Part shown: positions 4,498 through 25,321 of the stretch, in pieces
Layout: each line of letters opens with the position of its first letter
Position numbering within the stretch: position 1 is the first letter of the stretch
Assembly (NCBI GenBank): GCA_015487235.1
Contig: WFQC01000152.1
Span: 47,751-111,750, forward strand
DNA from: Alteromonadaceae bacterium
GTDB taxonomy: Bacteria; Pseudomonadota; Gammaproteobacteria; Enterobacterales; Alteromonadaceae
Length of the DNA: 64,000 bases
Direction: 5' to 3'
Made by a program: the position numbers and the translations under genes
Notes under the pieces: model-generated
Database searches by the model: none
What the model was told of the DNA's origin: nothing
What the model saw: the letters and a program-made list of their open reading frames with translations, nothing else

Positions 4498-4688
4498 TAC
4501 TTACCAGCCTTTTCAGTTATGATAGTCTTAACGCGCGCAATATTGCGGCGTACCGTTCTAAGCAAGTGTGTTTGAGCTAGCTGACCAGTGCTTGCTTGCA
4601 TGCGATAGTTAAACTGTTCGCGCAATAAGTCTAGTAATTCAGCATTAAGCTCTTCAATGCTTTTTTCTCTCAGTTCGCTAGCTTTCAT
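4497..4688 (-). CDS. rpmC: 50S ribosomal protein L29
   Basis: 63-aa [34 protein letters not shown]. Confidence 0.97.
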
Positions 4689-6473: not shown

Positions 6474-7298
6474 TTATTTAGTACGACGACGTACGATGAA
6501 TTTATCGGTACGCTTGTTCTTACGAGTTTTATAACCCTTAGTTGGTACACCCCAAGGTGATACCGGATGACGACCGCCTGAAGTTTTACCTTCACCACCA
6601 CCGTGTGGATGGTCAACTGGGTTCATAGCAACACCACGAACAGTTGGACGAACACCACGCCAGCGCTTAGCACCAGCTTTACCTAAGTTGCGAAGCATGT
6701 GTTCAGCGTTACCGATTTCACCTAATGTAGCGCGACAATCAGCTTCAACTTTGCGCATTTCGCCAGAGCGAAGACGTAAAGTTACGTAAGCACCATCTTT
6801 AGCAACTAATTGAGCATAAGCACCAGCAGCACGTGCAAGTTGTGCACCTTTACCTGGCTTTAACTCAATAGCATGAATAACACTACCTAAAGGTATATTA
6901 CGTAATGGTAAAGCATTACCTGCTTTGATCGGTGCATCTACACCAGACTGGATAGTATCTCCAGCTGATACGCCTTTTGGCGCTAAGATGTAACGACGCT
7001 CACCATCTGCATATAACACTAATGCAATGTTAGCACTACGGTTTGGATCATATTCCAAACGTTCTACTTTTGCAGGAATACCGTCTTTAGTACGTTTAAA
7101 GTCAATAATGCGGTAGTGTTGTTTATGTCCACCACCTACATGACGTACCGTAATACGACCCGTATTGTTACGACCACCAGACTTAGATTTAGTATCAAGT
7201 AGTGGAGCGTAAGGCTTACCTTTGTGTAACTCTGGGTTAACCACTTTAACGACGTGACGACGACCCGGAGAAGTAGGTTTACATTTTACAATAGCCAT
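6474..7298 (-). CDS. rplB: 50S ribosomal protein L2
   Basis: 274-aa [22 protein letters not shown]... Confidence 0.97.
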
Positions 7299-7310
7299 TC
7301 TCTAACTCTC

Positions 7311-7613
7311 CTATGCTTCTGCGCCGACGAAGTCGATATCGCTACCTTCTTTAAGAGTAACGTAAGCTTTCTTCCAGTCGCTACGACGACCAAAACGAGC
7401 ACCTGTACGCTTTGTTTTACCCTTAACATTTAGTGTACGAACACCGGTTACTTCAACGTCGAAAAGTTTTTCAACTGCTGCTTTAATTTCAGCTTTATTT
7501 GCATTGGTCGCTACTTTGAAAACAACAGTGTTGTTTGCTTCAGCAGAGATGGTTGCTTTTTCAGAAATGTTCGGTGCCAAAAGCACTTTCAACAAACGTT
7601 CTTCGCTTATCAT
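7311..7613 (-). CDS. rplW: 50S ribosomal protein L23
   Basis: 100-aa ORF lying between rplD and rplB. Confidence 0.95.
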
Positions 7614-23612: not shown

Positions 23613-24578
23613 ATGAAATATTTTCCCGTATTTATTGATGGCGACAAAATTGATGCCATGGTAATTGGTGGTGGCGATGTTGCAGCACGCAAAATAGAAT
23701 TATTACTAAAATCAACCAATAAAATCACTATTATGGCAGCCCAAATTAATGCCAATGTTTTACGATTAATTGAACATTATCACTTAACTTGGTTAGAACA
23801 TAATTATCGTACGGGCTTGCTTTGTGGTAAAAACTTAGTGATTGCCGCAACCGATAACAGCCAAGTCAATAAAAGTGTTTATGAAGAAGCCGAACAATTA
23901 AACATATTGGTTAATGTAGTAGATCAACCTGATTTATGTACTTACATAACCCCAGCAATAATTGATCGTTCGCCCATGATCATCGCGATTTCTAGCTCAG
24001 GCAGCGCTCCTGTATTAGTACGTATGTTACGTGAACAAATCGACAAAATGTTGCCCGACGGTTATGGCAAACTGGCTAAATTTTCATATAAATTTAGAGA
24101 TCATGTAAAAGCACGTATTAAAGGCGTGCGTAATCGCCGAACTTTTTGGGAAAAAACTCTTAATGGTGTAATTGGGCATACCGTACTCGCAGGCGATATT
24201 AACAAGGCAGAGCAAAAGCTCATTGCCAGCCTAAAACAACAAATCCCTCCCCCTGATGGTGAAATAGTGTTTATTCATACCCTCACAGGTGATCCTGATA
24301 ATTTAACACTCAAAGCTCATCGAGAAATGCAGTTTGCTGATGCCGTATTTTATGATGAGGACGTTAATGACGCCTTAATAGATTATGTAAGACGTGATGC
24401 TGAAAAGTACCCTCAAGCAGTTAGCTCATCTATTTTAGTTAACTATCAACATGCTATTGAGTTAGCACAAACAGGGCAAAAAGTTATTTACTTGCTCGCA
24501 GGCAATGAGCCGTTGCCTAATAATGTTGCTCTACAACAAAGTGGCATACTCACTAAAACGATTTTTTGTGGTGGTTAA
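23613..24578 (+). CDS. CysG-like siroheme synthase N-terminal module with a truncated, degenerate methyltransferase remnant
   Basis: 321 aa. Residues 1-200 align with the precorrin-2 dehydrogenase/ferrochelatase half of CysG (VIGGGDVAARKIELLL, ITPAIIDRSPMIIAISSSGSAPVL). The remaining ~110 aa align to the start of the SUMT domain, but GAGPGD is HTLTGD and GGDPFIFG is AGNEPLPN. The protein ends after about one third of that domain. Confidence 0.75.
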   Translation: MKYFPVFIDGDKIDAMVIGGGDVAARKIELLLKSTNKITIMAAQINANVLRLIEHYHLTWLEHNYRTGLLCGKNLVIAATDNSQVNKSVYEEAEQLNILVNVVDQPDLCTYITPAIIDRSPMIIAISSSGSAPVLVRMLREQIDKMLPDGYGKLAKFSYKFRDHVKARIKGVRNRRTFWEKTLNGVIGHTVLAGDINKAEQKLIASLKQQIPPPDGEIVFIHTLTGDPDNLTLKAHREMQFADAVFYDEDVNDALIDYVRRDAEKYPQAVSSSILVNYQHAIELAQTGQKVIYLLAGNEPLPNNVALQQSGILTKTIFCGG

Positions 24579-25235
24579 TTAAAGTGCACACGCAACGACT
24601 GCTGATCTTTTTTTGTCATTTTACCAACGACCAACCAATAGGAATTGTCCATCATTCGTTCAAGCTCACCGTGAGGAACACTGCCATCTAATATAATGGT
24701 ATTCCATGATTTTTTACACATATGATAGCCGGGAATAATGGCAGGAAAAATATCTCTGAGCATTATAGCTTCGTTAGGATCACATTTTAAATTAAGCCAA
24801 TAATATTTTTTATCCGCTGGTGTTTTATCAACACTTTTAGCGCGCTCACCTAGTGCCAATGTTGCAAACATTTTATTTTTTACTTTATACCCATGATACT
24901 TCAAGATGCGAGTTTCAGGATGCCTGAGCGATTCATGGTCAAGGCGCATCTTTTTATTAATGGTGTTCCCTTAAAAATAGATGCAACGAAGAACATGATT
25001 TGCTCAGGTATCCCCGTAAGGGCTGGTTTATAAACGCTTTATGCTACGTTATTGATTTCAACAAGGGAACAACCATTCTCTTCAATCAATGCCTTGCCTA
25101 AAAGCGTTTCTAATTCCAGCTGAATCCTGTATCTTGAGGTAACATGGGTATAAACACCATAATATCGTCACCAAAAGGATAACCAAGGCTGGTTTCAGGT
25201 TTTGCTAACAAGTACTGTTTAATTTGCGCTAACAT
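24575..25235 (-). pseudogene. MmcQ/YjbR-family gene split by a MITE insertion
   Basis: The N-terminal 28 codons (25152-25235, MLAQIKQYLLAKPETSLGYPFGDDIMVF) and the C-terminal 103 codons (24575-24886, KVKNKMFATL...GYHMCKKSWNTIILDG...) are in frame once the element and one TA are removed. The track ORF 24575-24949 (124 aa) starts with 21 element-encoded residues. Confidence 0.8.
24888..25150. mobile_element. 263-bp MITE-like nonautonomous element with TA target-site duplication
   Basis: The termini are TACCCATGATACTTCAAGATGCGAGTTTCAGG and GCTGAATCCTGTATCTTGAGGTAACATGGGTA. These 32-nt inverted repeats match at 25 of 32 positions and at 18 of the first 20. TA flanks both ends (24886-24887 and 25151-25152). 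The element has no transposase-sized ORF. Confidence 0.8.
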
Positions 25236-25321
25236 TATTTTTCCTCGAATAATAAATTTTATTAATGACAATTATGCTAACAATGGCACAATAGTAACAA
25301 TAATAAAAATAAGGATCTTAA

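Follow-up and report, generated by a model that had tools for sequence, protein, structure and literature searches.

The stretch of DNA analyzed here, a 64-kb window of 64,000 nucleotides from the Alteromonadaceae contig WFQC01000152.1, carries on its minus strand a gene of the YjbR/MmcQ family that is split in two by a 263-bp element (positions 24888-25150), which starts with TACCCATGATACTTCAAGAT and ends with ATCTTGAGGTAACATGGGTA. The first-pass annotation of this window, made from the sequence alone, had described the element as a miniature inverted-repeat transposable element (MITE) of the IS630 type, with a TA dinucleotide on each side, 32-nt terminal inverted repeats (TIRs) matching at 25 of 32 positions and no transposase-sized open reading frame (ORF). 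Each of these features was recovered here. The element and both TA dinucleotides (24886-24887 and 25151-25152) were confirmed from the sequence, counting by hand gave the same 25 of 32 matches for the 32-nt arms, and an inverted-repeat search that included the flanks returned arms of 35 nt with 83% complementarity (24884-24918 and 25120-25154). The longest ORF confined to the element encodes 46 aa; it was considered as a small gene and discarded, since its ATG lies inside the TIR variant of the window copy and the ORF is not conserved. When the 20-nt terminus was searched for in the 64-kb window with up to 3 mismatches, only the two ends of the element were found, with 0.01 matches expected by chance and two or more matches in 0 of 100 shuffled controls. 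The element hence shows the defining traits of a MITE: it is short and devoid of a transposase-sized ORF, it is bounded by TIRs and a target duplication, and it exists in many dispersed copies.

The effect on the interrupted gene can be read from two minus-strand ORFs that cross the ends of the element. One of them (25110..25271) encodes ...MLAQIKQYLLAKPETSLGYPFGDDIMVF and then reads into the element, and the other (24575..24949, 124 aa) begins within the element (MRLDHESLRHPETRILKYHGY), from which about 21 of its codons derive, and continues as KVKNKMFATL... Removal of the 263 bp plus 2 bp yields a 131-aa protein that spans positions 1-88 of the 88 in the Pfam YjbR model (PF04237, E 1.4e-27), whereas the 124-aa ORF covers positions 17-88 only and lacks the first 16 model positions. 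A search of the protein database returned 1,289 YjbR homologues at E <= 1e-10, the best of which (P0001, 131 aa) is 99% identical over the full 131 aa and reads uninterrupted through the insertion point (...GDDIMVFKVKNKMFATL...). Four homologue sequences, P0001 included, were read and are colinear with the rejoined protein, without the 265 bp; among the homologues with an organism name, the closest come from Colwellia. The earlier proposals that the gene rejoins in frame into an MmcQ/YjbR protein, and that the 124-aa ORF is a truncated remnant with 21 codons borrowed from the element, are both upheld by these results, and so is the expectation that intact orthologues lack the insert.

The gene encoding P0001 lies on a contig of an ENA metagenome assembly (L121) with the same gene order as the window (trypsin-like protease, YjbR, CysG, SBP_bac_3) and 98-99% identity to it over 8.6 kb. 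The flanks are identical in the junction alignment, where L121 reads ...ATGGTGTT-TA-AAGTAAAA and the window presents, at the same point, TA, the 263 bp and a second TA. The two sequences thus constitute a pair of empty and filled sites, in which the 263 bp are an insertion and TA was present once before and twice after, and this comparison demonstrates insertion with TA duplication. The empty site and intact gene that the first-pass annotation had proposed to look for are therefore at hand. Because a nearly identical strain has the uninterrupted gene, the insertion is recent or polymorphic in the population, and the split yjbR is most likely a null allele. For annotation purposes, the 124-aa "gene" should be treated as a fragment of a disrupted yjbR and the 263 bp as a mobile element, to be masked. 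At the far end of the gene, the stop codons of cysG (plus strand, ending at 24578) and yjbR (minus strand, ending at 24575) overlap tail-to-tail by 4 bp (24575-24578), as they do in L121. The coordinates of all features are compiled in Table 1, in which IS stands for insertion sequence.

Table 1. Features of the inserted element and of the interrupted yjbR/mmcQ gene, in window coordinates.
Feature	Position	Strand	Evidence
TA, left copy of the target	24886-24887		Sequence; single TA at the same point in the empty allele L121
TA, right copy of the target	25151-25152		Sequence and comparison with L121
263-bp MITE	24888-25150	+ (family reference orientation, in which the conserved 20-mer reads CAATCAATGCCTTGCCTAAA)	Repeats, copies and empty site
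Left TIR, TACCCATGATACTTCAAGATGCGAGTTTCAGG	24888-24919	+	TACCC-N8-T.AAGAT also at the ends of ISVa15-like IS630-family ISs
Right TIR, ...GCTGAATCCTGTATCTTGAGGTAACATGGGTA	25119-25150	+	Pairs with the left arm (25/32); IS right ends read ...CTGCATCTT.A.GT.......GGGTA
Internal hairpin 1, ~96 nt	24918-25013	+	Inverted repeat; in helices 2-4, 22 of 27 pairs with compensatory double changes
Small central hairpin, CCC-GTAA-GGG	25013-25022	+	Folds of both single strands
Internal hairpin 2, ~100 nt, with invariant core	25021-25121	+	Inverted repeat; outer helices 5-6 covary
Family-wide 20-mer CAATCAATGCCTTGCCTAAA	25083-25102	+	Basis of the genome scan
5' fragment of yjbR/mmcQ (MLAQIKQYLLAKPETSLGYPFGDDIMVF)	25151-25235	-	Identical to the N-terminus of intact P0001
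3' fragment of yjbR/mmcQ (KVKNKMFATL... to stop)	24575-24887	-	ORFs, Pfam, P0001 alignment

The element belongs to a large family, of which more than 120 copies were found. A blastn search of plasmid and chromid records detected its right half between genes on second chromosomes of Pseudoalteromonas, with an identity of about 80%, in copies with an overall architecture like that of the window element. The exact 20-mer CAATCAATGCCTTGCCTAAA, common to the window and the Pseudoalteromonas copies, was then used to scan one genome per species, and the count of copies in other genomes that had been suggested as a check reached at least 118 stretches in at least 8 genera, often with many in one genome. 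The hosts comprise Colwellia, Pseudoalteromonas, Shewanella, Motilimonas, Thalassotalea, Litorilituus, Pseudocolwellia, Endozoicomonas and a Methylophagaceae genome. The 99 full copies that were extracted have ends of the form TACCC...GGGTA and flanks that are unrelated between sites; most measure 261-263 bp, with minor classes of about 275 and about 310 bp. Insertion is seen in both orientations, and 78 of the 87 copies whose location could be scored are intergenic, the other 9 lying within ORFs. Among the 82 copies with exact ends, TA flanks the left end in 71, the right end in 71 and both ends in 64. The nearest relative of the window copy, at 94.7% identity, resides in Colwellia sp. 39_35 (L105), at least 15 near-identical copies are present in Pseudoalteromonas sp. 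NBT06-2, and further pairs of filled and empty sites were identified (L088/L034 and L114/L018). The Colwellia origin of this nearest copy and of the closest named YjbR homologues places the window in a Colwellia-like organism. No copy was found in the viral contigs searched for the family. The family has clearly passed between genera and between orders. Elements of this kind are well known, but the present family is notable for its size, its wide distribution among marine gammaproteobacteria and its unusually good folding; a literature search found no description of it or of its sequences. The hundreds of copies in Colwellia, Pseudoalteromonas, Shewanella and their relatives call for the same masking, all the more as the repeat also breaks assemblies, and the recent burst in at least one genome makes the family usable as a marker of recent transposition and strain polymorphism.

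The termini of the family lead to its probable source of transposase. Elements of the IS630/Tc1-mariner superfamily duplicate TA upon insertion and move by cut-and-paste chemistry. A tblastn search with an IS630 transposase query, confirmed by the search to be 100% identical to Shigella sonnei IS630, led to a distant IS630-family gene on the Vibrio vulnificus plasmid pC4602-1. The IS that harbors this gene, TA-TACCCGTGATCATTGAAGATGC...GCATCTTCGAGTTGAGCGGGTA-TA, displays the terminal pattern of the MITE, and its 342-aa product, annotated as IS630 family, contains HTH_23/HTH_29/HTH_33 and DDE_3 domains (the latter at 3e-39 in Pfam). ISVa15 has the same ends, and the terminal pattern of ISVa15-like ISs is TA-TACCC-N8-T.AAGATGC....GGGTA-TA. 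Relatives of the V. vulnificus IS include ISVa15 and elements in Shewanella, Psychrobacter, Photobacterium, Psychromonas, Endozoicomonas and Colwellia. Some 65 distinct IS insertions, gathered from a metagenome scan and from contigs of individual transposases, measure 1,091-1,118 bp and are flanked by TA on both sides in every case. The ISVa15-type ISs of Vibrio, Shewanella, Colwellia and Endozoicomonas, which are presumably the autonomous partners, and the MITE share the arrangement TA-TACCC-N8-T.AAGATGC ... GCATCTT.A-N8-GGGTA-TA, but the former are 1.09-1.12 kb long and encode a transposase with HTH and DDE_3 domains, whereas the latter is a non-coding sequence of 263 bp. They differ also in that the two ends of the ISs diverge in the N7-8 block, whereas the two ends of the MITE are complementary there. 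The left end of the ISs is almost constant; variation is seen at the right end, in the 7-8 nt that follow TACCC.

Both ends of the MITE subfamilies carry variants that match particular IS ends. The Shewanella MITE (L063, L088) agrees at 23 of 24 nt with the right end of an IS in a Shewanella metagenome-assembled genome (MAG; L123), the Motilimonas MITE (L015) at 23 of 24 nt with the IS end of L181, and the subfamily of L030 and L071 at 22 of 24 nt with an IS of Endozoicomonas montiporae (L225); Colwellia MITEs (L032, L033) and the IS of a Colwellia MAG (L224) have GTTGTTTGGGTA in common. The MITE termini therefore match those of IS630-family ISs. ISVa15-like ISs or transposases are present in other hosts, namely Pseudoalteromonas sp. 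NBT06-2 (L010), a marine metagenome contig (L219), the Colwellia MAG and Endozoicomonas, and in the first two the two kinds of element are directly seen to reside together. On L219, the right end of a diverged MITE (...CATTTTCAAGTAGCACGGGTA, 130-214) is followed by TATA and the left end of a complete IS (219-1335), the right end of which has the same terminal 14 nt as the adjoining MITE end. In NBT06-2, tblastn with ISVa15-like proteins located a 5'-truncated transposase gene of this type (L010, 7626-8000) directly downstream of a MITE copy (7284-7547), which may have inserted into the IS. The assignment to the IS630 type made by the first-pass annotation accords with all of this: the target is TA, and termini are shared with ISs encoding DDE_3 transposases, at 22-23 of 24 nt in several subfamilies.

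We consider it very probable that the element at 24888-25150 is a non-autonomous MITE, and that its family is mobilized in trans by the DDE transposases of the ISVa15-like clade of IS630 (Tc1/mariner) elements. Under this mechanism, an ISVa15-like transposase would recognize the TIRs of about 30 nt (TACCC-N8-T.AAGATGC...), excise the element and paste it into a TA, which would end up on both sides of it. The landing site in the present case was the TA spanning codons 28 and 29 of yjbR/mmcQ in a Colwellia-like bacterium, and the gene was split into a head of 28 codons and a tail without the first part of the YjbR domain. The cognate IS of the window variant would be expected to have the ends TACCCATGATAC.../...GTAACATGGGTA. 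In this role, the family ties the ISVa15-like transposase clade to a passenger that is spread over several orders of marine gammaproteobacteria.

Several observations weigh against this account. The TIR variant of the window matches the closest of the sampled IS ends at only 18-19 of 24 nt. The similarity between MITEs and ISs ends 25-40 nt from the termini and, judging from these alignments, the MITE interior is not IS-derived. No transposase gene was found in the 64-kb window, nor did the terminus scan or a low-stringency blastn reveal a second copy of the element there, the latter as already noted at first pass; because the window holds neither, it is only by inference that a transposase of this kind is active in this genome, moved the window copy and did so by cut-and-paste. 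On either side, 11 of 82 copies have a deviant outer flanking base, and non-TA flanks are never equal dinucleotides. Lastly, the compensatory change in the hairpins of the interior is left unexplained by cut-and-paste of double-stranded DNA alone. The search for an autonomous partner within the 120 MITE loci was negative, whether by TIR pairs 1-5 kb apart, by inspection of copies without a left end, by all-against-all megablast for repeated ISs or by tblastn with IS630, and no ISVa15-like transposase was detected on Pseudoalteromonas chromids in PLSDB at E <= 1e-60.

The interior of the element is strongly structured. The predicted fold, in which the TIRs pair into a terminal stem and two long hairpins are separated by a small one, has an energy of -112.5 kcal/mol for the plus strand of the window copy (z = -10.9 versus shuffles) and of -95.3 kcal/mol for its minus strand (z = -7.9). 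An alignment of 59 distinct copies of 255-268 bp gave a consensus structure of 72 pairs, for which 95.6% of alignment cells are paired, compared to 78.9% when partners are shuffled and 34-43% when they are slid, and 44 of the 72 pairs present pair-preserving changes on both sides. The small central hairpin, of the form CCC-N4-5-GGG in most subfamilies, falls outside the alifold consensus. Hairpin 1 differs in sequence at about half of its positions between subfamilies and retains its pairing; the core of hairpin 2 (columns 159-224, TTTATGC.GCGTTATTGATTT ... CAATCAATGCCTTGCCTAAA) is invariant in the 59 copies, although the 20-mer scan by itself imposes this for the second half of the core. The reverse complement of hairpin 1 and hairpin 2 have the blocks CGTT, AAGGGAACA(A)CCAT and GCCTTG in common, so that the interior looks like two inverted copies of one module of about 95 nt, with a shared motif (CGTT...AAGGGAAYAACCAT...GCCTTG) located about 55 nt from each end. 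The fold is genuine and has been conserved in the family; its cause could lie in the propagation of a very short element, in harmless or useful transcripts, or in template-switch homogenization of the hairpin arms.

One explanation is that the interior is a functional, selected module absent from the parent ISs, which would consist of the two inverted hairpins of about 95 nt with a core that is invariant from Colwellia to the Methylophagaceae; we regard this as conceivable but improbable. We would suggest, with low confidence, that the interior aids propagation of so short an element, for instance by providing a site of architectural or host-factor type close to both ends, or renders the element harmless upon transcription. 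A selected interior might possibly act as a platform for integration host factor (IHF) or a similar architectural protein, synapsing the ends of a 260-bp DNA, or as a folded single strand for mobilization. A perfect match to WATCAANNNNTTR, which we take to be the IHF consensus, is found at 25084-25096, inside the invariant 20-mer, and constitutes a candidate site; 7.4 such matches are expected by chance per 64 kb, or about 0.03 per element, and the left-hand module lacks the full consensus. This match is a lead rather than a finding. Over the whole window, the consensus occurs 16 times against the 7.4 expected, a number reached by 1 of 100 shuffles. The covarying interior offers a handle on whether very short passengers of the Tc1/mariner type need architectural or structural help and, if it is indeed selected, the requirements of an IS630/Tc1-mariner passenger would include structure in addition to the TIR sequence.

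Alternatively, and again against the odds in our estimate, the hairpins may be unselected, with template switching during replication homogenizing the arms of a quasi-palindrome and with an invariant core that reflects recent horizontal spread. Template-switch mutation at quasi-palindromes is established in Escherichia coli, pairing is kept alike on both strands, as expected of a symmetric process at the DNA level, and the family has spread over genus and order boundaries. Homogenization should nonetheless perfect the arms, and the loops and mismatches of the core persist (e.g. the invariant G.U columns 142/243 and 170/213, and unpaired blocks). In addition, hairpin 1 differs by about half between subfamilies while the core of hairpin 2 is invariant, which points to constraint and not to recency.

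That the conserved interior is a functional structured RNA, either a small RNA or a stability or processing element such as has been proposed for ERIC and Correia repeats, appears less probable still. The strength of the fold on both strands, the 44 compensatory pairs and the invariance of the core across orders are all compatible with such a function, as is a preference for G-U over A-C at paired positions of the reference strand (85 versus 24 in 17 representatives), an excess that is in part inherent in structure prediction. The two strands of the family fold about equally well, however, with a mean difference of -2.6 kcal/mol over the 59 copies and the plus strand more stable in 42 of them; a strand-specific fold was hence dropped as evidence for RNA, given that the window copy favors the plus strand by 17 kcal/mol and the family does not. 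Orientation relative to co-directional flanking genes shows no significant bias (29 versus 19), a scan of the element detected no terminator-like site, and the only promoter-like site that was identified is weak (9/12) and faces outward at the right end. Searches of Rfam 15 returned no match for the window element, the best hit being Flavo-1 with 20.7 bits against a gathering score of 42 (E 0.12), and none for nine other loci with copies, and no subfamily has an Rfam match. Taken together, the evidence does not favor a strand-specific RNA.

The flanking dinucleotides raise a separate question of register. In 82 of 82 copies, the left end is immediately preceded by A and the right end immediately followed by T, also where the outer base deviates. 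Duplication of 2 bp at a non-TA target would give equal dinucleotides, and neutral decay would strike inner and outer bases alike; a simple TA duplication with neutral decay does not account for the flank pattern. A reading that would do so, and that we deem very unlikely, holds that the mobile unit has 265 bp (A-TACCC...GGGTA-T) and inserts between T and A without any duplication, with the inner flank bases traveling with the element. Inner bases would then be invariant and outer ones free to vary, with the non-TA dinucleotides never matching; the comparison of the window with L121 fits this register equally well, and the decay of the terminal 5 nt, at only about 2% per site, also speaks for it. 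At the filled site L088, compared with the empty L034, the T^A register leaves an open codon (GTT CCG ATC), where a mutated TA duplication implies a stop (GTT TAG ATC). On the other hand, the roughly 65 distinct IS insertions and all young copies of the burst are flanked by TA on both sides, and copies with non-TA flanks are older, with a median nearest-neighbor identity of 92.0% versus 96.9% (p = 0.003). At the orthologous loci L053 and L081, moreover, TA has become TT by mutation, and duplication of TA is the established behavior of IS630/Tc1-mariner elements. The comparison of L033 with L107 is too rearranged to inform the register. We therefore retain TA duplication and interpret the flank pattern as decay with an unexplained bias, perhaps because copies that have lost the ability to excise persist. 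A possibility linked to that of a selected interior is that elements of the ISVa15-like clade take the inner base of the flanking TA with them.

Single-stranded mobilization by an HUH/Y1 transposase, after the manner of an IS200/IS605-type PATE or of the REPIN/RAYT system, would explain the hairpins, the compensatory conservation of which resembles that of REPINs and IS200/IS605 ends, but long TIRs and TA on both sides are absent from those systems, the termini match IS630-family ISs and folding shows no strand asymmetry, making this reading extremely improbable. The 265 bp could also be viewed not as an inactivating insertion but as a self-splicing intron or as authentic gene sequence, a notion that could draw on a highly structured element interrupting a coding sequence and that is refuted for practical purposes by the homologues (1,289 at E <= 1e-10, of which the four read, one of them 99% identical, are colinear without the element), by the intergenic location of about 90% of copies, by their insertion in either orientation and by the lack of any Rfam intron or ribozyme match.

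An IS630-mobilized MITE has well-known counterparts. The RUP elements of Streptococcus pneumoniae, other IS630-derived bacterial MITEs and the Stowaway elements of plants are short, non-coding, TIR-bounded, multi-copy sequences with a TA duplication, for which mobilization in trans by an IS630/Tc1-mariner transposase is assumed, and the window element follows the same short, non-coding TIR/TA design. RUP is about 107 bp long; the window family is larger, bears no sequence relationship to any of these elements and, unlike RUP and Stowaway, presents two separately folded hairpins and an invariant core common to several orders. The finding leaves the known working of IS630-type MITEs unchanged and will not surprise a specialist, the conserved interior being of moderate interest. 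Correia (NEMIS) repeats in Neisseria and ERIC in enterobacteria are TA-flanked or intergenic palindromic repeats that adopt long hairpins when transcribed, and neither is known to have a transposase partner. Such a partner is evident for the window family, unlike for Correia and ERIC, and the family shows no orientation bias pointing to use at the RNA level. Correia repeats begin with TA-TA... Their IHF site has been reviewed together with their RNase processing (PMC10969869). The window element likewise begins with TA-TA... and contains the candidate IHF match in its invariant core. REPINs and the PATEs of the IS200/IS605 family resemble the window family in having hairpins held by compensatory substitutions, but they lack TIRs and target duplication, and Y1 transposases move them in single-stranded form, whereas the window element has TIRs, TA flanks and IS630-type ends.

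Several further repeats were observed in or near copies of the family. Short forms of 155-191 bp occur at L044 (upstream of its 20-mer copy), L039, L028 and L031; the one at L044, the sequence of which was read, retains the TIRs together with a single hairpin of the two, and these forms may be deletion derivatives or an ancestral form with a single module. A nested mini-element of 48-49 nt with two small hairpins, ACGCTACATGGATGTAGCTTATTAGAGAATGCAGGAGCATATTCTCCT, was noted at L003 (5769-5816) and also at L007, L018, L030, L032, L036, L037, L054, L071, L079, L093, L094, L109 and L114. Flanked by AAGG and GAAYAAC, it lies in the apical loop of hairpin 1 (reversed) or hairpin 2 of Colwellia MITEs, and its insertion into these loops gives rise to the size class of about 310 bp. 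It is also present in the loops of a different hairpin repeat (L028, L030), and has the appearance of an independent, very small mobile element with hairpin loops as its target. At L033, a 42-bp element (4646-4687) consists of the TIR pair alone (TACCAAGCGAAC...GGTCGCTTGGTA), at a distance of 2 bp from a full copy, and L107 has neither the 42-bp pair nor the full copy at the orthologous site. A terminus of the same type (TATACCCGTTACCATTGAAGATGCAGGTTTCAG) followed by an unrelated interior is found at L005, from 2753 onward, and hints at another MITE family belonging to the same IS clade. Finally, a repeat of the form AAACG.TGTCC.A.GGATTCGGCTAAAG ... GAG.AGTATTT.CTTAGAATG takes the place of the left part of truncated MITEs at L055 (about 2500-2660) and at L065 (minus strand, upstream of the 20-mer), the hosts of which are a Colwellia genome and a Motilimonas genome.

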